Positions 6,986-41,795 of a stretch of 64,000 nucleotides of DNA are shown in pieces. Below the pieces are notes generated by a model. That model ran no database searches. It was not told where the DNA came from and saw nothing but the letters and a program-made list of their open reading frames with translations. Source of the stretch: an uncultured bacterium (GTDB taxonomy: Bacteria > Fidelibacterota > UBA2242); contig CAZSDW010000002.1 in NCBI GenBank assembly GCA_964605705.1, forward strand, positions 64,145 through 128,144. The letters are read 5' to 3'. The position numbers were made by a program, and so were the translations under genes. Position 1 is the stretch's first letter. Each line of letters starts with the position of its first letter.

Positions 6986-7617
6986 ACCTGCAAGTCCTGA
7001 TTTTACTGGCGCCCCCAATTCTGCTGGCGTTGACCTTTCATGAATTCTCGCACGGCTGGGCAGCTTATAAATTGGGTGATCCGACTGCGAAAATGGCAGG
7101 ACGGCTGTCCATGAATCCTTTAGTTCATCTGGATCCTTTTGGGACGATCATGATTTTTCTGGTACGCTTTGGCTGGGCGAAACCGGTACCCGTCAATCCC
7201 AGCTATTTCAGACAACCCAAGCGAGACATGCTGCTGGTATCCCTGGCAGGTCCGGGCGCTAATATGCTATTGGCTTTTATCAGCGGATTACTTTTTCGGG
7301 CATTTCATGCAGGCAGTTTTAATTTTATCCCGGTAGCGGTGCTGCAGCCGCTTTATATCATGGTGAAATTCAGCCTCCAGATCAACCTGGCTCTGGCGAT
7401 TTTCAACCTCCTTCCGGTACCTCCACTGGACGGATCCAAAATTCTTTACGGACTTCTGCCGCCACAATATGAATATATTTATGAATATCTGGAACGCTAT
7501 GGTCCATTTGCATTGATGGGATTGATTCTGTTCGGCATGCTGACCGGTATTTCAATCCTTGGTGCATTTATCTATCCTTTCGTAAATTTCTTTTCGAGAC
7601 TTTTTGGAGGAGGATAA
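6976..7617 (+). CDS. Site-2 protease family (M50-like) membrane zinc metalloprotease
   Basis: HEFSH motif in first TM region, multiple TM helices, LDGSKIL motif. Confidence 0.7.
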   Translation: MAMNLQVLILLAPPILLALTFHEFSHGWAAYKLGDPTAKMAGRLSMNPLVHLDPFGTIMIFLVRFGWAKPVPVNPSYFRQPKRDMLLVSLAGPGANMLLAFISGLLFRAFHAGSFNFIPVAVLQPLYIMVKFSLQINLALAIFNLLPVPPLDGSKILYGLLPPQYEYIYEYLERYGPFALMGLILFGMLTGISILGAFIYPFVNFFSRLFGGG

Positions 7618-7799
7618 TGGTTAAATATCAAAAGCGTGGTTTTTCGATCAGGGACAAACGCGCCGAGCGGAATAATGGTAAAATTCATTTTGAACGTTTG
7701 CGTCGAATGCCCCGAAAAATGGGTCGTCCACTGTGGTGGTTGTTCGTTTTATTGGTCGTTATTGTCGTGATTCTGCTATATTTAAACGGTGTCCGCTGA
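7617..7799 (+). CDS. Small hypothetical membrane protein (60 aa; basic N-terminus plus one TM helix)
   Basis: ORF start overlaps the M50 gene stop (ATAATGG); hydrophobic C-terminal helix; no family assignable. Confidence 0.3.
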   Translation: MVKYQKRGFSIRDKRAERNNGKIHFERLRRMPRKMGRPLWWLFVLLVVIVVILLYLNGVR

Positions 7800-7820
7800 T
7801 CCAGATAATGAGTTGATTTA

Positions 7821-9662
7821 ATGTCGAAGATAAAAATTCTTTCCGATCAACTGACAAATAAGATCGCCGCCGGCGAGGTCGTCCAGCGCCCGGCTTCACT
7901 GGTGAAGGAGCTGGTGGAAAACAGCCTGGATGCCGGTGCGAGTGACATTACAGTCATTGTCAGAAGTGGCGGAAAGACCTTGTGCCAGGTCGTTGATAAT
8001 GGTGAAGGCATGGGCAAGGACGATCTCCTGCTCGCATTCGAACGCTATGCCACCAGTAAAATTGCTACGACCGAAGATTTGATGGCAATCCGAACTCTTG
8101 GTTTCCGGGGTGAAGCACTGGCGAGTATTGCCGCGGTTGCGGTTGTTTATGCAATCAGCACTGAAAAAGGTGCTGAAAGCGGTCACGAATTAAGAATCGA
8201 AGGTGGCAGCTTCCGTGAAATAAAACCGGTCGCGGCGACGCAGGGTACGAATATATGCGTTAAAAACCTGTTTTTCAATGTGCCGGCGCGGCGGAAATTT
8301 CTGAAAAGCACCGAAGTGGAATTTCGTCATATTGTCGATGTGATTCGTAAATTTTCGATGATTCATCCGCAAGTTCAATTCAATTTAATCCATAATGATA
8401 AAGAAGTATTTCGTCTCAGATCGGAGTTGTTGGCTGATCGAATTGTCAACCTCTATTCCAGTGAATACAAAGAGAATTTGATAAAAATCGATGAGACCGT
8501 AACCGGGATGAAACTTTCCGGATATATCGGGAACCTGAACCTTGTCAGAGCCCGCCGTGGTGACCAGTATTTTTATGTCAATCAACGCTTCGTTACCGAT
8601 CGCCTGATGAATTATGCGATCAGCTCAGCTTATTCGAATCTCATCAGCCGTGGTGAATATCCCTTTTACTGTCTGCATCTGCGGTTGGATCCGGGCGAAG
8701 TGGATGTCAATGTGCACCCAGCCAAAATGGAGGTGAAATTCCGTGAGCAGAACTCGGTTTATCGCTTCCTGGAAGATACGGTCAAAGCGGGATTGAAAGA
8801 AATAACCGAGGTCATCCCGGATCTTGCCCGTTTCGCACCGGAACATTATTATAAACCGATGCCGGCTCCCCAGCCCCGGGATATTCAAAAAAATATCGAA
8901 GAGGATTCTGCTCTCACACCACTTGATCAGATTGATGGTTCCGAAGGAAATTCAATCGAAAAGTCCACTATTTCACCATTATCACAAACTGAGATGCCAT
9001 TACATTTTTCACGCCGGAGGGCTAGTGAACAATGGACAGAACGAGCAAAACGCTTTGTGGAACAGGGCATTCCGGAACCCCAAACGGAATACCATTCGGA
9101 TGTACCCCTCTATCAGGTTCATAACAAATATATTATTACCCAGATTAAAAGCGGTTTGGTGATTATTGACCAGCACGTTGCCCATGAGCGGATTTTATAT
9201 GACACCGCCATGAAAGCGATGTCGGAACAATCCTGGAAAGCGCAACAACTTCTGTTTCCCCAAATTGTTGAACTGTCTGTGACGGATTTTTCATTGCTGT
9301 TGGAGGTTCTGCCATTCCTCGAGAAAATCGGTTTCAGTATTCGTGAATTTGGTAAAAACACGGTTGCCCTTGAAGCGGTTCCTGCCGGAATGACCTGGGG
9401 AAATGAATCGACCATTATCAAAGAAATTCTCGATCACTATCATGAATATGGAACCAAGGATACCAGTATTCAGTCCAGAGTGGCAGCCTCATATTCCTGC
9501 AAAGCAGCCATTAAATCCGGTGACCGGTTAACCAATGAGGAGATGCATAATCTGGTGGATAATCTCTTTGCCACCCAAAATCCATATTATTGTCCCCACG
9601 GGCGCCCGATTATCATTAACCTGACGCTGAAAGAACTGGATAAACGGTTTGAAAGGGTATAG
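7821..9662 (+). CDS. mutL: DNA mismatch repair protein MutL
   Basis: GHKL ATPase N-terminus (IAAGEVVQRPASLVKELVENSLDAGA) and C-terminal dimerisation domain. Confidence 0.93.
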   Translation: MSKIKILSDQLTNKIAAGEVVQRPASLVKELVENSLDAGASDITVIVRSGGKTLCQVVDNGEGMGKDDLLLAFERYATSKIATTEDLMAIRTLGFRGEALASIAAVAVVYAISTEKGAESGHELRIEGGSFREIKPVAATQGTNICVKNLFFNVPARRKFLKSTEVEFRHIVDVIRKFSMIHPQVQFNLIHNDKEVFRLRSELLADRIVNLYSSEYKENLIKIDETVTGMKLSGYIGNLNLVRARRGDQYFYVNQRFVTDRLMNYAISSAYSNLISRGEYPFYCLHLRLDPGEVDVNVHPAKMEVKFREQNSVYRFLEDTVKAGLKEITEVIPDLARFAPEHYYKPMPAPQPRDIQKNIEEDSALTPLDQIDGSEGNSIEKSTISPLSQTEMPLHFSRRRASEQWTERAKRFVEQGIPEPQTEYHSDVPLYQVHNKYIITQIKSGLVIIDQHVAHERILYDTAMKAMSEQSWKAQQLLFPQIVELSVTDFSLLLEVLPFLEKIGFSIREFGKNTVALEAVPAGMTWGNESTIIKEILDHYHEYGTKDTSIQSRVAASYSCKAAIKSGDRLTNEEMHNLVDNLFATQNPYYCPHGRPIIINLTLKELDKRFERV

Positions 9663-9665
9663 CGA

Positions 9666-10625
9666 TTGGTCCATACCCCTGAAAAGCATCTTATTAAATC
9701 CTCACAAGTAATTCCCATGATTGTCGGTCCTACTGCCGTCGGTAAAACAGCTACCGCTATCGAATTGGCAAAACGGCTGGACGGTGAAATAATTTCCATC
9801 GATTCACGGCAGGTTTATAAAGGCATGGATATTGGTACGGCTAAAGCAACCCTGCGCCAGCAAAAGGAGATCCCCCATCATCTGATCGACATTCTTGAGC
9901 CCACCGAACAGATCAGCGCCGGTGCGTATCGTGAATTAGCCTTGAAAGCGGTCGATGAGATTCAAGCACGTGGTAGATTGCCGATTTTTGTCGGTGGCAG
10001 CGGATTGTATGTCAAGGTCATGGTTCAGGGGATTTTTCAGGAAAGTGTCACCGATGATCGAGTACGGGAAAAAATCCAGTCCGAGCTGACGACAATAGGT
10101 GCCGCGGCTCTCTATAATCGCCTGCTGGATATTGATCCGGAACTGGCAGTTAAAACCCATTTGAATGACACAAAGCGTATTACCAGAGCCCTGGAAATCT
10201 TTGAGATAACCGGTAAAGCACCCAGCGAACATTATCAGGATCAAGAAGCCGAACCACCCTTTCCACACAAGATATTTGTTCTGACGACAGATCGTGAAAG
10301 ACTGTACGAGAGTATCAATGAACGCGTTGATGAAATGATTGCCGATGGACTGGTCGAAGAGGTTGTAAACCTGCTCGATTCCGGACTGCGGGAAAACCTG
10401 GATTCCTTACTGACGCTGGGATATCAGGAAGTTGTCGCTTATCTGGATGGCGATTGCACTCATGCCGAGATGGTGGAAAATATCAAGCGTAATACGCGAC
10501 GCTATGCCAAGCGGCAGTTGACCTGGTTTCGCAATCAGCTGGATGCGATCTGGATACATGTACCGGAAAACCGATCAATCCCGGAAGTAGTAGAGCAGAT
10601 TACTGATCATTTACGGTTAAAATAA
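9666..10625 (+). CDS. miaA: tRNA dimethylallyltransferase (TTG at 9666; an alternative start is ATG at 9711)
   Basis: P-loop GPTAVGKT followed by SIDSRQVYKGMDIGTAK; classic mutL-miaA linkage. Confidence 0.9.
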   Translation: MVHTPEKHLIKSSQVIPMIVGPTAVGKTATAIELAKRLDGEIISIDSRQVYKGMDIGTAKATLRQQKEIPHHLIDILEPTEQISAGAYRELALKAVDEIQARGRLPIFVGGSGLYVKVMVQGIFQESVTDDRVREKIQSELTTIGAAALYNRLLDIDPELAVKTHLNDTKRITRALEIFEITGKAPSEHYQDQEAEPPFPHKIFVLTTDRERLYESINERVDEMIADGLVEEVVNLLDSGLRENLDSLLTLGYQEVVAYLDGDCTHAEMVENIKRNTRRYAKRQLTWFRNQLDAIWIHVPENRSIPEVVEQITDHLRLK

Positions 10626-14996: not shown

Positions 14997-17314
14997 AGCG
15001 CATAATACATATATTGCTGCTAATGTTTTTGGCAAGTCCTCTGACAGCGGTGAATATATCGGGTTACGTGGTCGATCAGGAAACCGGCGAGACAATTATC
15101 GGTGTCAATGTCATGGTCGAGGGCAATGGACAGGGCGCGGCGACGGATGTTAAGGGATTTTTCATTATCCGTAATTTGGAAGAAGGTCAGCATAGCTTAC
15201 GATTTTCTCATATTGCCTATAAACCGTTAATCCAAACTTATACACTCTTTCGGAAGGACCTGCATCTCGGTGAAATTCCATTAGAGCCACAATCAATCCA
15301 GACTGAAGCGGTCGAAGTACTTGGACAGCGTGGCTCCATTATTCAGAAAGATATGGATATTGCCAGTTTTGAGATGGACCCGATTATCCTCACCGAGATA
15401 CCGCAGCTCGGCAAAGATGTTTTTCAGATGGTAAAACTGTCACCAAGCGTGACGGTTTCTGATCCATTTTCACCGCAATATTATGTGCGGGGCAGCGATC
15501 CCGGTGAAAATCTTGTCCAGTTGGATGGAATGACAATCTACAATCCGCAGCATTTTATGGGGTCAAATGCGATTTTCAATCCCTATGCCATCAAAAACAT
15601 TGAAATGCTGGTTGGTGGCTTCGATGCCGAGTACGGAGGACGAAATTCATCGATTTTAAATATCAGCTCAAGGGAAGGTCACCAGAGTGAAGTCCATGGA
15701 GAATTCAGACCGTCGATTTCGGGGCTTTCGGGAGCGCTGGAATTTCCTGCCGGACAAAATGCCACTGCGATGGTTTCCGGTAGAATGCTGACCGATGTGA
15801 GTTTTACAGTGATGATGGGATCACCAAATCTGATGGCGGATTTCAATGGCGCTTATCAGAAGAGCTTTCGTAAAACCAAACTGCGGTTATCAGCATTTTA
15901 TGCCCGGGATTATATGGATTACAGTATTGATGCCTTGATACTGTTTTTCCCCGAGACAATATTTGAGGATTTCAAAGAAGGATATATTGCCAATACAAGC
16001 AATAAGGCTTTGGGTGTTCAAAGCAGCACGGTCCTGACGCCGAACCTGCTCCTGGAATCACATCTCTACTATTCTGGCTCGGAGGTTGACAATAAAACCG
16101 CCTTTAGCTATTCCTTTAAGGATTCGACTTCCGAGACGGACTTTGCCATGGATTACAGGACCCGGATCGAAAATTCCATTAATGATGTTACCTTTAAATC
16201 GCATCTGTCGTGGTTTACATTCTGGAACCAAAGCCTGAAACTGGGAATAGAAATCAACCGCCTGCGGTTCATGAATCGGCTGGGCAGTTTTGATATTCAA
16301 TCTGAGAAGTCGATCTATTTCACGACATTTCAAGCCTTTTTCCTGCAGGATAAAATTGAATTTGGGAAATTGTTATTCAAAATCGGTGTTCGTAATTCGA
16401 GGGAGATTAATACAACTAAGTGGCGTCAGGAACCACGGATTTCAGCAACATTGAAGGTTTCAGACCTGACATTCAAATTGGCTTATGGTCACTATTATCA
16501 GTATTTGACGACATTGGATTCTAAAAACAATGAATTTGTTCAGTTCCTGGATTACTATAATCCACTTGTGGGACTGGACCCACTCTTTTCAATTCACCAT
16601 ATATTTGGGATTGAGGGTAAAATTACTGAACGTCTCGATTATTCTTTTACGGCATATTATAAAGATTTACGGACACTTTACCGGTCCAGTTATGAATCCG
16701 GCGGAATGGCGGTCAATCACCAAAGTCATTTTGAAAAAGGGAGCGGTGAATCCTACGGATTCGAACTCCTGTTTCGGGGTGAAATCGGGAAATTATCCGG
16801 ATGGGTAGGGTACACCTATACTCATGGTACCAGAAATTACCCAATGGTCCTGAATGGAAAAACCGTGCTCTTCGATGGCGACCAACCTCATAATTTCAAA
16901 TCTGTTCTGCTTTATAAACTTACTGAAGATATCACTGCCAGCTCGACACTGCAGTTCACCTCTGGTTTTCCGAGAACCTGGGAAACCGGTATGTTGATGC
17001 ACTATTATTATGATCCGTTGTGGAATGGTCTGGGTGCTGCGCCAACGAATATTACACCGGTTAAAAATAATGTCCGCTACCCGCCGCGACTGATCTGGGA
17101 CATCGGCTGGAAAAAGAAACTGCGGGATGGATTCGGTTACCATCTGGCTGAATATCTGGGCGCTGATGACGCCATTTTTGCAATGACAATACGTAACCTT
17201 CTGTTTCTGCACCGGGACCCGCAATATTACTTCTATTTCCCGAATTATGGTTATTATGGTTTTGATTTTCAATTTCTGCCCAGCATATCAGCAGGTTACA
17301 GTATCAGGTTTTAA
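14993..17314 (+). CDS. TonB-dependent receptor with N-terminal carboxypeptidase-regulatory-like domain
   Basis: Signal peptide, CarbopepD_reg-like region (ISGYVVDQETGETIIGVNV), plug motifs (VRGSDPGENLVQLDGMTIYNP) and a long beta-barrel ending in an aromatic residue. Confidence 0.8.
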   Translation: MKRIIHILLLMFLASPLTAVNISGYVVDQETGETIIGVNVMVEGNGQGAATDVKGFFIIRNLEEGQHSLRFSHIAYKPLIQTYTLFRKDLHLGEIPLEPQSIQTEAVEVLGQRGSIIQKDMDIASFEMDPIILTEIPQLGKDVFQMVKLSPSVTVSDPFSPQYYVRGSDPGENLVQLDGMTIYNPQHFMGSNAIFNPYAIKNIEMLVGGFDAEYGGRNSSILNISSREGHQSEVHGEFRPSISGLSGALEFPAGQNATAMVSGRMLTDVSFTVMMGSPNLMADFNGAYQKSFRKTKLRLSAFYARDYMDYSIDALILFFPETIFEDFKEGYIANTSNKALGVQSSTVLTPNLLLESHLYYSGSEVDNKTAFSYSFKDSTSETDFAMDYRTRIENSINDVTFKSHLSWFTFWNQSLKLGIEINRLRFMNRLGSFDIQSEKSIYFTTFQAFFLQDKIEFGKLLFKIGVRNSREINTTKWRQEPRISATLKVSDLTFKLAYGHYYQYLTTLDSKNNEFVQFLDYYNPLVGLDPLFSIHHIFGIEGKITERLDYSFTAYYKDLRTLYRSSYESGGMAVNHQSHFEKGSGESYGFELLFRGEIGKLSGWVGYTYTHGTRNYPMVLNGKTVLFDGDQPHNFKSVLLYKLTEDITASSTLQFTSGFPRTWETGMLMHYYYDPLWNGLGAAPTNITPVKNNVRYPPRLIWDIGWKKKLRDGFGYHLAEYLGADDAIFAMTIRNLLFLHRDPQYYFYFPNYGYYGFDFQFLPSISAGYSIRF

Positions 17315-17315
17315 G

Positions 17316-18095
17316 ATGATGAAGCAATTAAAAATACTATTTTTTATCCTGGCGGTTTGCCTGATAGGGATGAATACCTGTGATTTGCCGACTGATCCGG
17401 GACCGATGCCCAAAGATTTGATCGATACAAGATTTGAACCGGGACTGAATATTTTTGGTGTTTTGCGGGCGGACAGCGTCAGCGGCAGCTCCTTTATCCA
17501 TGTGGAGAAAGCGCTCCTGACAGAAGAGATGTATAGCGAATCGGATATATTTGATTCGACAGTTATTGTTCAGGTAACTGACACGCTGACCGGTGAAACG
17601 TTTGATTTTAATGCAATTGAGGATACAACGCATCGCGGATACTATTATAATGATGAATTTTATCCCGAGCCCGGACATTATTACACGATTGAAATCCAAT
17701 CGGACAGTTTGCCAACACTGACCGCCGGGACGACAGTTCCGATGCAGCCACAGATCACTTCAAGTACTCTTTCAATTGAAACTAACAAAGTATGCTTTGA
17801 TCTGCAGCTGACTGCGGATACTTATCAATATAACTTTTACCTGTTCGTGGGCGAAGATATCATTGAAAAACAGATTGCCAATGACAAATCCGGTACGACC
17901 ACAGTAAGCATTGATTTTCCCGAATCCGCAGGTTCCCCAACCGGATTGGTTATCATCGGATACGACCGGAACCTGACGGAGTATTTGAATTCCTCACCAG
18001 CTTTTATACCCCAAACCTTTCACGAAATGGTCAATACAGTTAAAAACGGCTACGGATGTTTTGGGTCGCTGGCGGTGATGACAATTGGATTATAG
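17316..18095 (+). CDS. DUF4249-like lipoprotein commonly paired with CarbopepD_reg TonB-dependent receptors
   Basis: Signal peptide plus lipobox-like NTCD, ~260 aa, position immediately after the receptor; the family call is from memory. Confidence 0.5.
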   Translation: MMKQLKILFFILAVCLIGMNTCDLPTDPGPMPKDLIDTRFEPGLNIFGVLRADSVSGSSFIHVEKALLTEEMYSESDIFDSTVIVQVTDTLTGETFDFNAIEDTTHRGYYYNDEFYPEPGHYYTIEIQSDSLPTLTAGTTVPMQPQITSSTLSIETNKVCFDLQLTADTYQYNFYLFVGEDIIEKQIANDKSGTTTVSIDFPESAGSPTGLVIIGYDRNLTEYLNSSPAFIPQTFHEMVNTVKNGYGCFGSLAVMTIGL

Positions 18096-18124
18096 ATGAC
18101 TTCAAATATTCTCCCCGGAGAGTT

Positions 18125-18164
18125 GAAACCTTCACAAGGATAAAAATTATCCTTCTGAAGGTTC
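18125..18164. repeat. Imperfect palindromic repeat, copy A (gaaaCCTTcacAAGGATAA-aaa-TTATCCTTctgAAGGttc); candidate bidirectional terminator / insertion boundary
   Basis: ~18-bp arms with a 3-nt loop, seen directly; a related copy lies at 20227..20297. Confidence 0.6.
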
Positions 18165-18190
18165 AGAGTTCGGAAATGCTAAACTGGGAA

Positions 18191-18643
18191 TTATTTTCTT
18201 AATTTCAGTCTGTTGATTTCCTGCTGGATTTCGGGGATTACTTCCTGATTATGGATGACTTTTTTCCCGTCATGTTTGATTGAGAACAGGTAAAAAACTT
18301 TGCCACCAAATTCTTGGGTGAATTTTTTGTGGGTTTCTTTTTGAAATCCTTTTTCTTTGTAGATTTGGGAAATATGTGTGACTCCACTGACCGGTTTGAT
18401 TTGTAATCCAATGTACTTGTCGAAGATTTTTATAAAGAAATCAACGTTGTACAATCGATCCCAGTTGTCCGGCGCCGGTTCGATTTTAACTTCGAGTAAT
18501 TTTTGTAATTGTCCGTATATTGTATTTATTTCAGTAGTATAGCCGTCAAATGTTCGATCAATAACTAACTGGTATATGTAATTGATGCAATCATCTTCGG
18601 TGATGTTTTCCACTTCAGCAGCGATGACTTCTGTAATTTTCAC
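18191..18643 (-). CDS. Hypothetical 150-aa protein, candidate cognate restriction endonuclease or specificity partner of the adjacent methyltransferase (GTG start)
   Basis: Co-directional and 180 bp downstream of the MTase in an AT-rich island. A possible degenerate PD-...QxK arrangement (NVD...LQIK) is only suggestive. Confidence 0.35.
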   Translation of the reverse strand: MKITEVIAAEVENITEDDCINYIYQLVIDRTFDGYTTEINTIYGQLQKLLEVKIEPAPDNWDRLYNVDFFIKIFDKYIGLQIKPVSGVTHISQIYKEKGFQKETHKKFTQEFGGKVFYLFSIKHDGKKVIHNQEVIPEIQQEINRLKLRK

Positions 18644-18822
18644 ATAGAGTTTGCGTCCGAGTTCTTCGATATGGTCACGTGTTCTGACGTTTTTAAATTA
18701 TATGTTCGCCATGTATCAATATCTCTTTGGGAGAACATTTTCGGATTTCTTCGGAAACGGCGCCGACATTCCGCTTAAAATTCAATTGAAAGCGGTTCAT
18801 TGCCGAGTTAAGGATCCATTCT

Positions 18823-20124
18823 TTAGCCATGAGCTGCTCGCAGATAGTCATGAAATTTGTTCATATATTTGTAATCATAGTGGTCGTCCACATCCGTCAG
18901 ACCATTTTTTAACAAGTGGGCGTTGATAAAGGTTTTATTTTTCAGATAAAGGTAACAAAGTAAATTATTTTCTTCGTCGTGTTTTATTTTGTCGAATTTT
19001 AAAAATACTTTCTGACCATTTAATTTTTCTTTAAGATAATTGACTGCCTTACCGTTTTGTGATTTATCTTCTTTTATACCAAGTAATCGGACGGTTAATC
19101 CATTATTTAATAATATTTTTTCAGGAGAAATAACCTCTTTTACGGTATAATAATCTTCCCGTTCATGGTTACTATTCGTGTCAATCCGTGAACCGAAATT
19201 CAATTTTTTAGGATCAATTTTTTTATCCAGATCATGGGGGTCTTTAAAAATGTAGGTAAGTTTTTGAATTTCTTTTTTGAAGTCGATTTTAAGATTAGAC
19301 TGTTCGAGAAAATCAAAGCTTGTTCCGAATATATCAGACTGATCCATATTTAATTTTTTCCTGATAATTGGAATAAACTCTTTGTTTATTTCATATCCAA
19401 TTGAACTTCTTCCGGTATTTAATGCTGCCAGGGAAGTAGTCCCACTACCCAGAAAAGGATCGAGGACGATATCGCCGACAAAGGAAAACATTCTCAATAA
19501 GCGCCGTGGTAATTCCTCAGGAAACATTGCTATATGTCCATCTTGTTTCGCACCTCCGAAATTCCAGTGTCCTGAAAAGTAGTTATTCCATTCCTCCTTG
19601 GTTAATCTGGATAATTCCTTATTTTCACGGCTTGGTTTTTTGGATGTTCCCAATTTTTTAAAAATTAGAATAAATTCATAATCAATTTTTAGGATTCCAT
19701 TCCTTGGAAAGGGGAAGCTGCCCATTATTGTCGCTCCGCCGCTTGTGTTGGTAGTAGTCACTTTTTGCCAGATAATAGCTCCCATATAGTCGAATCCAAT
19801 ACTTTCACAGAATTTTATAATTTCGGTTCTGATTGGAATGACTTTGTATCTACCATAGTAAATCGACCTTGCGAATTGGTCTCCAATATTGATGCAGAGT
19901 CGGCAACCATTATCTAAAACACGATAACATTCTTTCCATACAAGGTTTAAATTATTTATATAATTTTCGTAAGTATCGTTGTAACCTATTTGTCGTTTAG
20001 TACCATAGTCCTTTAATTGCCAATACGGAGGAGAAGTAATTACTAAATGTACTGATTTTTCGGGCAATTCTGCCATTTGTCGGCTATCGCCGTTGATTAT
20101 TTTATGATGGGTTTTCACGTTCAA
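18823..20124 (-). CDS. Beta-class DNA methyltransferase (N4-cytosine/N6-adenine type) fused to a C-terminal staphylococcal-nuclease-like OB-fold domain
   Basis: SPPY (motif IV) precedes DPFLGSGTT (motif I), the beta-class order. C-terminal ~100 aa (TVRLLGIKEDKS...VFLKFDK...LLCYLYLKNKTFINAHLLKNGL) mirrors the SNase fold pattern but lacks the DTPE/Arg catalytic residues. Confidence 0.8.
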   Translation of the reverse strand: MNVKTHHKIINGDSRQMAELPEKSVHLVITSPPYWQLKDYGTKRQIGYNDTYENYINNLNLVWKECYRVLDNGCRLCINIGDQFARSIYYGRYKVIPIRTEIIKFCESIGFDYMGAIIWQKVTTTNTSGGATIMGSFPFPRNGILKIDYEFILIFKKLGTSKKPSRENKELSRLTKEEWNNYFSGHWNFGGAKQDGHIAMFPEELPRRLLRMFSFVGDIVLDPFLGSGTTSLAALNTGRSSIGYEINKEFIPIIRKKLNMDQSDIFGTSFDFLEQSNLKIDFKKEIQKLTYIFKDPHDLDKKIDPKKLNFGSRIDTNSNHEREDYYTVKEVISPEKILLNNGLTVRLLGIKEDKSQNGKAVNYLKEKLNGQKVFLKFDKIKHDEENNLLCYLYLKNKTFINAHLLKNGLTDVDDHYDYKYMNKFHDYLRAAHG

Positions 20125-20226
20125 AATTTAGCTTCGTACTTAGATTGTATTTTTAATATAATGAAATTCGAAATGATTCACAACAGTCGCTGTGCTCTCT
20201 CATAATGACTGGAAATTTTGGATTTG

Positions 20227-20297
20227 GAACCTTTAGAAGGATAACAATAAATTTGCAGTTTGTCAGAAAATCGGTCAAATATCCTTCTGAAGGTTCC
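20227..20297. repeat. Palindromic repeat, copy B (gaaCCTTtagAAGGATAA - 35 bp spacer - TATCCTTctgAAGGttcc)
   Basis: Same arms as copy A, in direct orientation, separated by a 35-bp insert; directly abuts the DUF2804 stop. Confidence 0.6.
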
Positions 20298-20313
20298 CCG
20301 TTAGTTTATATTC

Positions 20314-21363
20314 CTACCACCGGTTCATGACCTTTTCCGCAAAGCCGAGGAAATCGCTCATGATGATTTCCTTTCCGTCATCCAGAATTGCTTTTCCGGA
20401 AAACCTGCCAATGACCTGGTGCTGATCGGATTGCAGAAACAGCAGGTTGGTGTTGGAATGACGATCAAGAATGGGCTGAAAATCCATCTCAAAGCGGCTG
20501 TCATTGCTGCTGAAAGTCCAGGATTTCAGGTAGCTGTCGGCGGGAATGTGAAATTCCACCTGGTCGAGTTTATGGACCTTACCATTGAAGAATAGCAGGT
20601 TTTCGGTGGCTCTCGACGTATCGCCGAAGCCGTAACCGATATTGAAGCCGAAAAGATCATTGCCGACTTTTCCTGAAGCGGAGCCCCAGTACCAGGTGTT
20701 ATTATAAGTCCAGACGCCGCGTCCCCAGTCGAGCACACCGAAGGATTTCCGCGGATCGAAAGGTATTGTTCGGTCACCGAGCGTCAACTTACCTTCGGCA
20801 GGCATGCAGTTAACTTTCTGGTTATAGTAAAAGGCGTGCTTATTTTTCGGAAAGGGCGTTGCTATGACCATAGTTTCATAACGATCCGGTTGATTTAGCC
20901 GGATATTCGCCTCCAGTGTCTGCTTATCTTTGAAGTTCCTGAAGGCAACTTCGATAAGCCGCTCTTCTTTCTTCCTGATAAATTTCATCGAAACGGTTTT
21001 GTTTTCAAAAAGGACATCGCCGGTTTTTGATGATACGGGCATCTTGAATTTTCCCAAGGGGAATAGGGTAATCAGGTCTTTGGATATCTCTTCCGGTTTC
21101 TCAAAATCAAAGACTGTGGCAGCAATGAATCCCATATAACCATTATCAGCGATGGTAAAGGACACTCCGGCATTATCCGAAAGAATACAGTAGTAATCCC
21201 ATTCCTTGATTTTAAATCTGGGTGCTTTTATATCATTCCGGCTATACTCAAGAATTAGATCTCTCGACCAGCCGGGATTGTTCGGAACGCCATCGGAATT
21301 GAGCAGTCGTGCGGGAGAGATAATTTCAGTTTGCATAGTGCCTCTTTTTCTATTTATAGCCAT
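20314..21363 (-). CDS. DUF2804-like hypothetical protein
   Basis: ~340 aa with Trp/Gly-rich blocks (NNTWYWGSASG, FGFNIGYGFGD) remembered for DUF2804; start may be the internal Met at 21334. Confidence 0.45.
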   Translation of the reverse strand: MAINRKRGTMQTEIISPARLLNSDGVPNNPGWSRDLILEYSRNDIKAPRFKIKEWDYYCILSDNAGVSFTIADNGYMGFIAATVFDFEKPEEISKDLITLFPLGKFKMPVSSKTGDVLFENKTVSMKFIRKKEERLIEVAFRNFKDKQTLEANIRLNQPDRYETMVIATPFPKNKHAFYYNQKVNCMPAEGKLTLGDRTIPFDPRKSFGVLDWGRGVWTYNNTWYWGSASGKVGNDLFGFNIGYGFGDTSRATENLLFFNGKVHKLDQVEFHIPADSYLKSWTFSSNDSRFEMDFQPILDRHSNTNLLFLQSDQHQVIGRFSGKAILDDGKEIIMSDFLGFAEKVMNRW

Positions 21364-21503
21364 CTGGAGTCAAATATTCATCAGAAAGGAATGAATGTCA
21401 ATGATTTTGCACGTGAATAATTGTAATTACTTTAGATGCAAATAAATCAGAAATTGTTTAAGTTTGAATTGTTAAAAGATTATAACAAGGAGAGAGGATT
21501 GCT

Positions 21504-21734
21504 ATGGAAAATAGCCTGAAGTTCAAACTGATTATTGGGCTGGTCATTGCCGCGCTGGTTGTCGTTTTTATCGTACAGAATGTTGCCGTCGTTGACATTA
21601 AATTTTTATTCTGGAAACTGTCTATGTCCCGGTCTTTAATGATGTTTTTCCTGGTCATTATCGGGATGATCGCCGGCTGGTTCTTAAAAGGAGCAGCTGT
21701 TCGCCGGAAGAATGAGCATCTTGATAATTCATAA
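21504..21734 (+). CDS. LapA-domain (DUF1049) small inner-membrane protein
   Basis: 76 aa with two TM helices matching the LapA-type pattern. Confidence 0.55.
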   Translation: MENSLKFKLIIGLVIAALVVVFIVQNVAVVDIKFLFWKLSMSRSLMMFFLVIIGMIAGWFLKGAAVRRKNEHLDNS

Positions 21735-21760
21735 GGGATATTCCGTAGAAGGATAATAAT

Positions 21761-23131
21761 TTGAAAGCAGTACTTCTAAGCATTGTTCTTGCGTTGATAT
21801 ATGGATTGTGTTATCTCGCTGGTCTTGATTTTTTACATACCTGGGTGACGCTGGTTTTTTCCGGATCAATTCTGGGAACCCTGCTGTTCTGGGATTTGCG
21901 GCTCAGCTTCATGTTTATCGGCAGCGCCTTACTGTTTCTCGGTGGAAATGTCGATCTGGGGCATTTTATTCAGTATGCCTCCTTCGATGTTATCCTCTTT
22001 CTGGTCGGGATGATGATTGTTGTCGCGATGGTAAAAAATTCCGGAATATTTCATTTAACTCTGCAACATCTCATGCGACTTCCGAAAATGAACGGATTAT
22101 TTCTATTCGTTATTATACTGGGTACCGGAGCGCTTCTTTCGGCATTAATGGGAGAGATTGCGTCAACCCTGATCCTGATAGTAATTATTTTTGATATTTG
22201 TGCTCAACTCGATTTAGATCCGATTCCGCTGGTCATTGCCTCGGTTGTCACCACTAATATTGGATCAGCCGCAACGCTTTTAGGTAATCCGGTCGGCGTT
22301 TTGATTGCGCTCAGGGCAAATCTGTCGTTTGTGGATTTTTTAACCCATGCCCTTCCGGTAACGTTAATCGTTTTGTTAATTACGATTGCCATATTATTCA
22401 TGTGGTTTAGAAAATATGTCAAGGAATTGTCTATAAAATTAGTGGACCAACGATCCCGGTTGGTTTCCATGCCAATGACCGAAATTGATCGGGATTCGAT
22501 TGCCAGCCTGATTGTTTTTGGGATTACGATTCTTGCGATTTCGATCCATTCGGTTTTGGAAAGATGGTTGCATGTTGCGGATAATGACCTGCTGATAATG
22601 ATCCCTGTTTGTGCCGCCGGAGTTGTGATGGCAATACGCAAAGAGCAGGTTCACCAGTATATCGAAAAAGAAGTTGAATGGACATCATTACTGTTTTTCA
22701 TTTTTCTGTTTGCCGAAACCGGTGTGCTGCAGGCTTCTGGACTGGCGGATAAAGTTGGGCAGGGGATATTAAACATTGCAGGAGAATCGACCCGCTTATT
22801 GCAGGGAATCACCCTCGTCGCGACCGGTCTCCTCTCCAGCGTGCTGGATAATACAGTAGTTGTTGCAACATTTATTCCCTTGGTAAAAGGCATGGGTGAT
22901 GCCGGAATTCAAATCGGTTCGTTGTGGTGGTGTATCCTGTTTGGCGCCTGTATCGGAGGTAATATCACCACCATTGGTTCAGCCGCCAATATTGTCGCAA
23001 TCGGATTACTGGAAAAGGAAAAGAAATTGACCATACCATTCATGAAGTGGTTGTGGATCGGTTTGCTGACCGGCTTCATCGGATTTCTGGTCAGTTTCGG
23101 TGCGGTCTTACTCTTTCCGGTATTTCGATAG
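21761..23131 (+). CDS. ArsB/NhaD-superfamily anion permease (polytopic transporter)
   Basis: 456 aa, ~12 TM helices, duplicated permease halves. Confidence 0.6.
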   Translation: MKAVLLSIVLALIYGLCYLAGLDFLHTWVTLVFSGSILGTLLFWDLRLSFMFIGSALLFLGGNVDLGHFIQYASFDVILFLVGMMIVVAMVKNSGIFHLTLQHLMRLPKMNGLFLFVIILGTGALLSALMGEIASTLILIVIIFDICAQLDLDPIPLVIASVVTTNIGSAATLLGNPVGVLIALRANLSFVDFLTHALPVTLIVLLITIAILFMWFRKYVKELSIKLVDQRSRLVSMPMTEIDRDSIASLIVFGITILAISIHSVLERWLHVADNDLLIMIPVCAAGVVMAIRKEQVHQYIEKEVEWTSLLFFIFLFAETGVLQASGLADKVGQGILNIAGESTRLLQGITLVATGLLSSVLDNTVVVATFIPLVKGMGDAGIQIGSLWWCILFGACIGGNITTIGSAANIVAIGLLEKEKKLTIPFMKWLWIGLLTGFIGFLVSFGAVLLFPVFR

Positions 23132-41744: not shown

Positions 41745-41760
41745 GATTTCGACTGATAAT

Positions 41761-41795
41761 AAAAAAGGGCTTCTGCAGAAGCCCTTTTTTATTTT
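41761..41795. terminator. Bidirectional intrinsic terminator between convergent frr and nrdJ
   Basis: AAAAAA-GGGCTTC-tgca-GAAGCCC-TTTTTTATTTT. Confidence 0.8.

Follow-up and report, generated by a model that had tools for sequence, protein, structure and literature searches.

Insertion of restriction-modification (R-M) units with a long target duplication was reportedly described by Nobusato in 2000. For R-M units which carry neither a transposase nor an integrase this is a recognised mode of entry (Furuta 2010, PMC2853133). The criteria of that study are that the restriction (R) and the modification (M) gene both lie inside an insert of less than 20 kb, that no mobility gene is present, and that a direct repeat of more than 30 bp flanks the insert, which corresponds in an alignment to one copy at the empty site and has no further copy in the genome. 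In the H. influenzae cases, 46-bp repeats surround an insert of 32% GC in a genome of 38% GC (PMC2853133). With regard to the enzymes, M.MthZI, M.MjaI and M.BfaI are beta-class methylases which produce m4C in CTAG (PMC5867850), and MjaI is active on CTAG (PMC2615612).

The window analysed here, i.e. the whole stretch of 64 kb, contains at 18165..20225 an acquired Type II R-M cassette of the MjaI/MthZI kind. This type of cassette is already catalogued, and the locus illustrates the arrival and decay of such cassettes in an unremarkable but neat way. The 2.06-kb insert comprises the M and R genes alone, without any mobility gene, which is the content by which the cases in PMC2853133 were defined. 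As already noticed in the initial annotation, the ORFs of the island include no integrase or transposase, and neither a tRNA nor an Rfam match was found in it. Of all 2-kb windows in the 64 kb this segment has the lowest GC content (35.1% compared to a mean of 43.4%, about 3.7 sd under the mean of these windows), and the flanking genes lie around 8 GC points above it (43.0% and 45.9%). The GC3 of the methyltransferase gene is 0.325, the lowest among 36 long ORFs and about 2.9 sd under their mean. The windowed GC analysis therefore bears out that the module is the most AT-rich 2 kb, but not the values of roughly 30% against 45-50% that had been estimated by eye. Its position between two convergent genes, which end at 18095 (plus strand) and 20314 (minus strand), is as first described.

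The intact gene of the cassette (18823..20124, minus strand) encodes an N4/N6 DNA methyltransferase with 433 aa. Translation may in fact begin at a GTG at 20118, which would result in 431 aa. The catalytic domain (PF01555, E 5e-44) comprises residues 25-255 (19360..20052, minus strand). Motif IV (SPPY, around residue 31) precedes motif I (FLGSGTT, around residue 224), and the protein therefore belongs to the beta class, as the initial annotation had proposed. It shares 36% identity with M.MthZI over residues 3-259 (E 4e-41), matches the PDB structure 2zie (E 3e-59) and is covered over its full length by the PADLOC model MTase_II PDLC03259 (E 8e-187). The C-terminus carries a staphylococcal-nuclease-like (SNase-like, OB-fold) domain (PF00565, residues 358-426, 18847..19053, minus strand; 28.5 bits at a cut-off of 21), which is also detected by the NucI model (E 2.5e-8) and by thermonuclease PDB matches (E about 0.006) and is a feature of the family as a whole. 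The Ca2+-binding and catalytic residues D21, D40, T41, R35, E43 and R87 of the nuclease were compared. In the HMMER alignment to thermonuclease, which is of low confidence, D40 corresponds to K and R87 to N, T41 and P42 fall into a gap, and R35 and E43 are aligned with R and E. Provisionally, the SNase-like domain is regarded as probably non-catalytic. The 101 nt upstream of the gene which belong to the insert (20125..20225, minus strand) are the presumed promoter site. This region shows no conservation when other copies of the cassette are compared, and a promoter scan of it revealed a weak sigma-70-like site at 20183..20155 that scored no better than shuffles.

The architecture M(N6_N4_Mtase+SNase)-R(RE_MjaI) is found in hundreds of genomes from several phyla with M proteins that are 70-77% identical. 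[quoted passage not shown] The initial annotation regarded the module as atypical for a standard Type II system. This is not supported, as the fusion of methyltransferase and SNase together with an MjaI-family endonuclease is very common and catalogued, and the short ORF beside it is a pseudogene fragment. The methyltransferase of the window is 76-77% identical to proteins from unrelated bacteria versus 69% to a homologous copy in a related MAG (L007). For carriage on plasmids or phages, searches of PLSDB and INPHARED returned distant methylase homologs alone, with at most 40% identity and without the SNase part.

On the left the island is flanked by a core gene encoding a lipoprotein-like ORF (17319..18095, plus strand), which is located 3' of a TonB-dependent receptor gene and converges on the island, and on the right by the core gene for a DUF2804 protein (20314..21363, minus strand; Pfam E 4e-141). 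The left neighbour had been named DUF4249. A profile scan gave zero Pfam matches for it even at E<=1, but one precomputed record holds a weak match to that family. In relatives the left gene is syntenic and 56-66% identical. The comparison with relatives that the initial annotation called for shows that the flanking order is kept, with both genes convergent and directly adjacent without the cassette, on six contigs from three related lineages (L002/L091/L092, L003 and L004/L094), whose DUF2804 proteins are 77-79% identical. For a same-species empty site, an exact-protein look-up, a genome scan and a metagenome scan yielded either identical contigs bearing the island (L001, L090) or relatives of at most 79% identity. 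The MAG L007 contains its homologous cassette on a scaffold with the same neighbourhood. Its junction between DUF2804 and the left gene is itself empty, and the cassette is attached via a scaffold gap. The arrangement is unreliable because exactly 100 N make up the join. A second insertion site beyond DUF2804 in L007 was considered and dropped, the gap being of undefined length.

Both ends of the insert are marked by a palindromic hairpin (AACCTTNNNAAGGATA..TATCCTTNNNAAGGTT). Copy A (18126..18164), probably the left insert boundary, has a stem of 16-17 bp and a loop of 3 nt and lies 30 nt past the stop of the left gene and 26 nt past the stop of the R pseudogene. Copy B (20226..20297) forms the right boundary 16 nt past the stop of DUF2804. 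It has the same arms in a stem of 18 bp with 94% complementarity, and the 36 nt between them include 32 additional nt. This anatomy corresponds to the initial description. The right arms of the two copies match at 19/20 positions and the left arms with their flank at 23/28. Two copies are indeed present, but their direct orientation is weakly defined because the element is a palindrome. The palindrome measures around 40-45 bp and the repeat spans about 18120-18164 and 20221-20296; it is only just longer than the 30 bp of PMC2853133, and besides being a palindrome it has an interruption in copy B. For both copies a stable fold is predicted, with -23 to -29 kcal/mol and z -4 to -5. They have no U-tract and were not called in an intrinsic terminator scan; copy A is probably a bidirectional terminator.

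That two hairpins originate from a target duplication at insertion is plausible but unproven, because the empty sites found are too diverged. The spacers of these sites, from relatives with 77-79% protein identity, do not align with the hairpin, and none of the three lineages contains a remnant of it. The empty site of L002 has a perfect hairpin of its own (13 bp in the stem, 3 nt in the loop), which is non-homologous. A MAFFT alignment hinted at a duplication reaching the 3' end of the left gene ('ATGACT..AAAT'); this was rejected, since it is not above chance in local alignments with shuffles. The proposal of the initial annotation that the module inserted into, or duplicated, a terminator hairpin thus agrees with the anatomy and with a second host that has its own repeat, while an empty site with a single copy was not found. 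The additional 32 nt in copy B would need a second event under target duplication.

The alternative that survives best, though it is rather improbable, is that the hairpin belongs to a dispersed palindromic family, REP/MITE-like or made up of recurrent terminators. The cassette would then have landed between two copies by chance, or the copies would be independently maintained as terminators, and there would be no insertion footprint. This corresponds to the third class of Furuta, 'chance insertion between repeated sequences' (PMC2853133). The stable palindrome is indeed placed like a terminator after three genes, its two copies differ by the internal segment of 32 nt, and a local alignment found no likeness between the island ends beyond the hairpin, so that the likeness stops at the palindrome edge. 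The genome search that bears on this point covered 64 kb, and a flanking repeat is absent in 5/7 contexts of the cassette. Against a dispersed family stands that a search with a 17-mer of the arm, allowing <=3 mismatches, recovered the four arms alone in the 64 kb, with 0.27 matches expected by chance and 0/100 shuffles reaching four arm matches. The initial annotation had itself named common intergenic hairpins as a possible refutation, and within 64 kb the arms occur at the two island ends alone. The window contains three long hairpins, of which the other two are unrelated in sequence, and 1.87 Mb of other loci, relatives included, contain no copy. Furthermore, the spacer that is left after subtraction of the insert and one hairpin copy measures about 85-90 nt, which fits the spacers of 57-290 nt in the relatives.

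In a second unrelated host (L082/L083) the cassette is bracketed by its own direct repeat of 27-33 nt. As in this window, the first repeat there begins around 172-175 nt before the M start, and an internal extra segment is present in one of the copies. Flanking direct repeats are significant in two of the seven independent contexts, and were therefore rejected as a general property of the cassette. It is very unlikely that the cassette is self-mobilising, targeting and duplicating palindromic intergenic hairpins or terminators, with the SNase-like domain, conserved though catalytically unusual, or the endonuclease supplying the DNA-breaking or -binding step. Such a reading rests on the two independent hosts, the window and L082/L083, with their host-specific end repeats.

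A lateral insertion of the cassette, already suspected at first sight, is well supported because of the GC anomaly including the lowest GC3, the empty syntenic sites in three lineages, the constant GC content of the cassette and the 70-77% identity across phyla. An ancestral cassette that was lost in the sampled relatives, e.g. by recombination between the flanking hairpins, so that no gain occurred in this lineage, is extremely unlikely. Direct repeats around the segment would permit precise excision, and L007 carries a homologous cassette in the same neighbourhood. However, three separate lineages are without the cassette and none of them keeps a hairpin remnant, and the cassette lies 8 GC points under its flanks, with a GC content that its family shows irrespective of the host. 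Moreover, the M protein is nearer to unrelated bacteria than to L007, whose cassette is joined to an empty DUF2804/left-gene junction solely via the 100-N gap.

The second gene of the cassette is a pseudogene of an MjaI/MthZI-family endonuclease (18191..18830, minus strand), as indicated by RE_MjaI matches and by the alignment to L007. The ATG with which it starts, at 18830, shares nucleotides with the stop codon of the methyltransferase gene (ATGGCTAA). It appears as two ORFs on the minus strand, one of 52 aa (18693..18851) and one of 150 aa (18191..18643), which constitutes the 3' two-thirds of the R gene. The co-directional 150-aa ORF of the initial annotation is thus present, but as a fragment of a frameshifted R gene and not as a complete gene. 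The HMM searches which had been recommended for both proteins assign N6_N4_Mtase and SNase to M, and RE_MjaI (PF09568) to the two R fragments, which cover profile positions 1-33 and 59-159. The two E values of the fragment matches are 2e-25 and 8e-8. In comparison to the L007 DNA the R gene has gained 2 nt at about 18728-18729 and lost 1 nt around 18698-18700. A single frameshift or sequencing error splitting the gene was considered and rejected, the DNA alignment showing two separate indels. Both sit in short runs (CCCAAA and TTTAAAAA), around 30 nt apart with a net change of +1, and apart from them the reading frame is clean. The Logan assembly of SRR9710702, which may share reads with the window, has the identical sequence with both indels.

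The repaired R protein comprises 212 aa, matches positions 1-159 of the 164 of RE_MjaI (E 1e-46) and is collinear with intact 212-aa homologs, to which it is 70-71% identical. It keeps D130 and I144-K145-P146, which are invariant in the homolog alignment. With R.MthZI of plasmid pFZ1 it shares 27% identity (E 3e-8), and the PADLOC model REase_II PDLC03450 matches R. The N-terminal 60-75 residues are conserved in all intact homologs, with N8, V22, G23, I29 and W40 invariant. Due to the two frameshifts the locus is now most likely an orphan methylase with an R pseudogene, and restriction activity would have been lost, as far as the sequence indicates. An orphan methylase is the expected outcome once restriction is lost and methylation is kept. 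It is scarcely credible that the R gene is functional in a working R-M system, the frameshifts being assembly or sequencing errors or being bypassed, or the 150-aa C-terminal product being active alone: the otherwise clean frame, the short runs at both indels and the catalytic-core region (D130, IKP 144-146) inside the 150-aa ORF would be in favour of it, but a second assembler yields the identical sequence, two lesions 30 nt apart with net +1 are improbable as short-read errors, phase variation would need longer runs, and the N-terminal part is conserved in all intact homologs.

Homology to characterised enzymes, with 27-36% identity, suggests that the presumed target of the cassette is CTAG and the modification m4C. 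The window contains 14 CTAG sites versus 34 expected. The count is uninformative because relatives without the cassette at the site are equally depleted, and CTAG depletion was therefore rejected as evidence of restriction pressure.

Taken together, the best explanation, which we consider probable, is an acquired MjaI/MthZI cassette that entered at a hairpin with long target duplication and whose R gene was inactivated. In its intact form the cassette would be one operon for two proteins, a beta-class methyltransferase with a C-terminal, probably non-catalytic SNase-like domain, and a PD-(D/E)XK-type endonuclease of around 212 aa that is coupled to it in translation. The methylase would shield the CTAG sites of the host, and the endonuclease would cleave incoming unmethylated DNA. 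Entry would have taken place at a terminator-like palindromic hairpin in the short space that separates the two convergent core genes, and this hairpin would stand on both sides afterwards as the result of insertion with long target duplication. Two frameshifts near the 5' end of R would then have inactivated the endonuclease and left the rest of the gene undecayed, so that the present role is most likely that of a solitary CTAG methylase alone.

At this locus the life cycle of R-M units can be followed in a clean and datable case from the uncultured phylum Marinimicrobia/Fidelibacterota. A minimal two-gene unit would have arrived without mobility genes, leaving repeats at its ends, followed by rapid loss of restriction while methylation was kept. 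The prediction is m4C at CTAG in the methylome of the host. The annotation can be corrected by merging the ORFs of 52 aa and 150 aa into one pseudogene, and the methyltransferase-SNase fusion is a standard family and not a novelty. A new mechanistic question would arise only if the hairpin-duplication pattern were general for the cassette.

Like the cases of Furuta, the locus is a small unit of R and M genes without integrase or transposase, an insert of lower GC content by the 3' ends of genes, with a flanking repeat longer than 30 bp. Within the 64-kb window no further copy of this repeat occurs. The published cases of long duplication include an alignment of the repeat with its one copy in a conspecific strain whose site is empty, whereas the spacers of the relatives do not align here. 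Also in contrast to them, the repeat is a palindromic hairpin, one copy of which has an internal extra segment of 32 nt. With the MthZI, MjaI and BfaI systems the cassette shares the homology of both genes, the two-gene Type II organisation and the catalytic motif SPPY. Those enzymes comprise 303-364 aa (PMC5867850), whereas the methylase described here has 433 aa with the extra C-terminal SNase-like domain. The MthZI genes on pFZ1 are convergent, but here both genes run in one direction and the stop of the first overlaps the start of the second, and the R gene is frameshifted twice. Another close match is the widespread cassette of PADLOC models PDLC03259 and PDLC03450, with the same architecture, gene order, overlapping junction and low GC content, and with 70-77% identity for M and 70-71% for R. 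In contrast to this locus, with its pseudogene, R is intact in all further copies examined that are fully readable (six contexts; the L007 copy is cut by the scaffold gap), and the host here is a Marinimicrobia/Fidelibacterota-like bacterium. Finally, the locus resembles the solitary methyltransferases that derive from decayed R-M systems, as an intact M gene stands beside an inactivated R gene; in comparison to them the decay is very recent and consists of two indels only.

The AT-rich island lies between two convergent genes, a lipoprotein-like gene to the left (17319..18095, plus strand) and the DUF2804 gene to the right (20314..21363, minus strand). Its GC content is 35.1% (18165..20226), compared to 43.4% for the window, 43.0% for the left gene and 45.9% for the DUF2804 gene. 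It has the lowest GC among all 2-kb windows (mean 43.4%, sd 2.2), and its methyltransferase gene shows the lowest GC3 of 36 long ORFs (0.325; mean 0.455, sd 0.045). The anomaly described in the initial annotation is therefore real by windowed GC and GC3, although about half the size estimated there. According to the closest genome matches the host is a Neomarinimicrobiota/Fidelibacterota-like bacterium. Three related lineages, represented by six contigs (L002/L091/L092, L003 and L004/L094), share 77-79% identity in DUF2804 with the window and lack the cassette. Gene order is conserved in them, with p352, TonB receptor, lipoprotein on one side and DUF2804, LapA, CitMHS transporter, PAS on the other; the convergent genes are 96-290 nt apart, and neither methylase nor endonuclease lies between them. 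These empty syntenic sites together with the composition support a gain in the lineage of the window, and the lateral acquisition proposed earlier is well supported.

The mechanically called ORF of the left gene begins within the TonB-receptor gene (17247-17318). Translation probably starts at 17319 with MMKQLK, giving a lipoprotein-type signal that ends in ...NTC. No Pfam match to DUF4249 was obtained for this gene even at E<=1; a precomputed record has a weak one. A homologous cassette is found at positions 1-1516 of L007 (JBNGDF010000011.1, from the related Fidelibacterota MAG E05-020), with a methylase 69% identical and a 5' part of the endonuclease gene 74% identical and without frameshift. 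It is joined to a DUF2804 gene beginning at residue 49 across a run of exactly 100 N, and the DUF2804/left-gene junction of L007 is empty. The join may reflect a genuine second site of insertion or may be an artefact of scaffolding.

The larger gene of the island (18823..20124, minus strand) encodes a 433-aa methyltransferase (PF01555 N4/N6, E 5e-44), which is of the beta class because SPPY precedes FLGSGTT. The methylase is complete and undisrupted and closely resembles homologs that look functional. Its C-terminus carries an SNase-like domain (PF00565, 28.5 bits, cut-off 21). In a weak alignment to thermonuclease this domain has counterparts for R35 and E43, but K at D40, a gap at T41/P42 and N at R87. 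We provisionally infer from this alignment a non-catalytic OB-fold, which perhaps serves DNA binding.

The 150-aa ORF (18191..18643, minus strand) covers RE_MjaI profile positions 59-159, and a 52-aa ORF just upstream of it (18693..18851) covers positions 1-33. DNA alignment with the L007 homologue revealed a pair of indels: the window gene has two bases more at ~18728-18729 and one base fewer at ~18698-18700. With both repaired, the endonuclease gene starts with an ATG at 18830 that overlaps the methylase stop codon (ATGGCTAA) and encodes 212 aa without a stop. The product aligns with positions 1-159 of the 164 in RE_MjaI (E 1e-46) and is collinear with intact 212-aa enzymes of two other bacteria (70-71% identity). 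Alignment-invariant residues are kept; D130 and I144-K145-P146 are among them and plausibly form the catalytic core. For these reasons the gene is regarded as a recent pseudogene. The window sequence over 17079..20753, both indels included, is reproduced at 100% identity in a Logan assembly of run SRR9710702, and a JGI contig shows no difference from it over 18997..22143.

More than 120 cluster representatives match the methyltransferase over its full length at 70-77% identity, and nearly all of them contain the SNase domain. Among the sources given by name are Pseudomonadota, Hydrotalea (Bacteroidota) and Thermodesulfobacteriota. All six further independent contexts examined (L082-085 with L172-175; L086/087; L088/089; L170; L171; L176) have an undamaged RE_MjaI gene of 196-233 aa behind the methylase, with a stop/start overlap of the two genes. 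The PADLOC methylase model PDLC03259 is matched over its full length (E 8e-187, positions 2-423 of 423), and PADLOC also has an endonuclease model, PDLC03450. Cassette GC is 33-37% in host flanks of 35% to 51%, which fits frequent horizontal transfer. The initial annotation was largely right about the locus, but the composition it called atypical for a standard Type II system is standard and catalogued; the oddness is due to a known methylase-SNase fusion family and an endonuclease pseudogene. The locus is another example of an already known cassette type.

The cassette often adjoins other Type II R-M pairs (L082/L084/L174 at ~8064-10577; L170 at 7159-9125), among them a HinfI-family and a BsoBI-family pair. 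Strains of the same species differ in whether they carry the HinfI-family pair. The cassette is also found downstream of a Gp49/HTH toxin-antitoxin-like pair. Together with these neighbours it forms small defence islands that are gained and lost at the level of strains.

The methylase shares 36% identity (E 4e-41) with that of the Methanothermobacter plasmid pFZ1, whose system is MthZI. Between the repaired endonuclease and the adjacent pFZ1 gene, annotated as an MjaI-family endonuclease, identity is 27% (E 3e-8). M.MthZI is an experimentally characterised m4C CTAG methylase, and M.MjaI and M.BfaI are placed in the same class (PMC5867850); MjaI is an active, CTAG-specific enzyme (PMC2615612). 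From this homology CTAG would be the best candidate target and m4C the best candidate modification. The characterised CTAG methylases have 303-364 aa and no SNase-like domain (PMC5867850), in contrast to the 433-aa protein of the window. CTAG occurs 14 times in the window where 34 are expected, a count that is uninformative on the cassette since relatives without it at this site are just as depleted. An intact cassette would methylate host CTAG and cut unmethylated CTAG of invading DNA; at this locus restriction has most likely been lost, which would leave the methylase as a solitary enzyme.

No other 4-nt palindrome in the window is nearly as depleted as GGCC, which has 3 sites (26074, 28486 and 31949) against ~180 expected under a maximal-order Markov model (ratio 0.02). 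L007 has 0 against 48 expected, while depletion is slight or none in other relatives (L003, L004, L092, L094 and others). This suggests a strong, lineage-specific HaeIII-like restriction pressure.

Each spacer beside the island contains one copy of the same palindrome. Copy A (18126..18164) is a stem of 16-17 bp closed by a 3-nt loop. In copy B (20226..20297) the stem measures 18 bp, is 94% complementary and has its arms 36 nt apart. Both are predicted to fold stably (-23 to -29 kcal/mol, z -4 to -5). Similarity of the island ends is limited to the palindrome (~18120-18164 and 20221-20296); a proposed extension toward the left-gene stop codon was at chance level and was dropped. Because the element is palindromic, its direct orientation rests on few asymmetric positions. 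Hairpin B probably terminates DUF2804, and hairpin A probably both the left gene and the methylase-endonuclease transcript; a U-tract is absent from both, and a consensus scan scored neither as a terminator. In contrast, a perfect 17-bp palindrome with a 4-nt loop and flanking A and T runs at 41756-41795 (ATAATAAAAAAGGGCTTCTGCAGAAGCCCTTTTTTATTT) resembles a textbook bidirectional intrinsic terminator.

Under the main rival to a duplication at insertion, the hairpin would be one of a dispersed kind and would flank the island by coincidence. A search of the 64-kb window with the 17-nt arm (<=3 mismatches) matched only the four arms of the two copies; 0.27 matches are expected by chance, and four were reached in no shuffle. 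The window contains just two other long perfect hairpins, unrelated in sequence. No hairpin alignment was obtained in the spacers of the three lineages with 77-79% identical DUF2804. One of them has a different perfect hairpin at the equivalent spot (13-bp stem, 3-nt loop), which shows a palindromic, terminator-like element to be a normal occupant of the spacer. Without the insert and one hairpin copy the spacer of the window would measure ~85-90 nt, inside the relatives' range.

An origin of the two hairpins by duplication at insertion is plausible but unproven, and would be in line with a phenomenon already described. The locus reads x, hairpin, endonuclease and methylase, hairpin, y, with x the sequence next to the left gene and y the sequence next to DUF2804. 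That is the layout predicted by 'insertion with long target duplication', which is documented for R-M units without mobility genes, among them H. influenzae cases that have repeats of 46 bp and inserts of low GC (PMC2853133). Published criteria are both genes within the insert, an insert <20 kb, a repeat >30 bp and, in a comparison genome with an empty site, one copy to which the repeat can be aligned (PMC2853133). Here both genes lie within an insert below 20 kb, and the repeat barely exceeds 30 bp; the empty sites available for comparison are those of the three lineages with 77-79% identical DUF2804. A significant flanking direct repeat is found in two of seven independent cassette contexts, the window being one; the second case strengthens the duplication idea, and the count shows that such repeats are not universal. 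The second, in an unrelated host, is a direct repeat of 27-33 nt (AATGTTTTGTAGTTTTGGGGGAAG...) with copies ~2245 nt apart (L082 5826-5852 and 8074-8100; L083 5826-5858 and 8068-8100; L084 1920 and 4168) and no further copy within these loci of 9-13 kb. Like its counterpart in the window, the upstream repeat begins ~175 nt before the methylase start, and in this host too one copy contains an extra internal segment, of ~54 nt.
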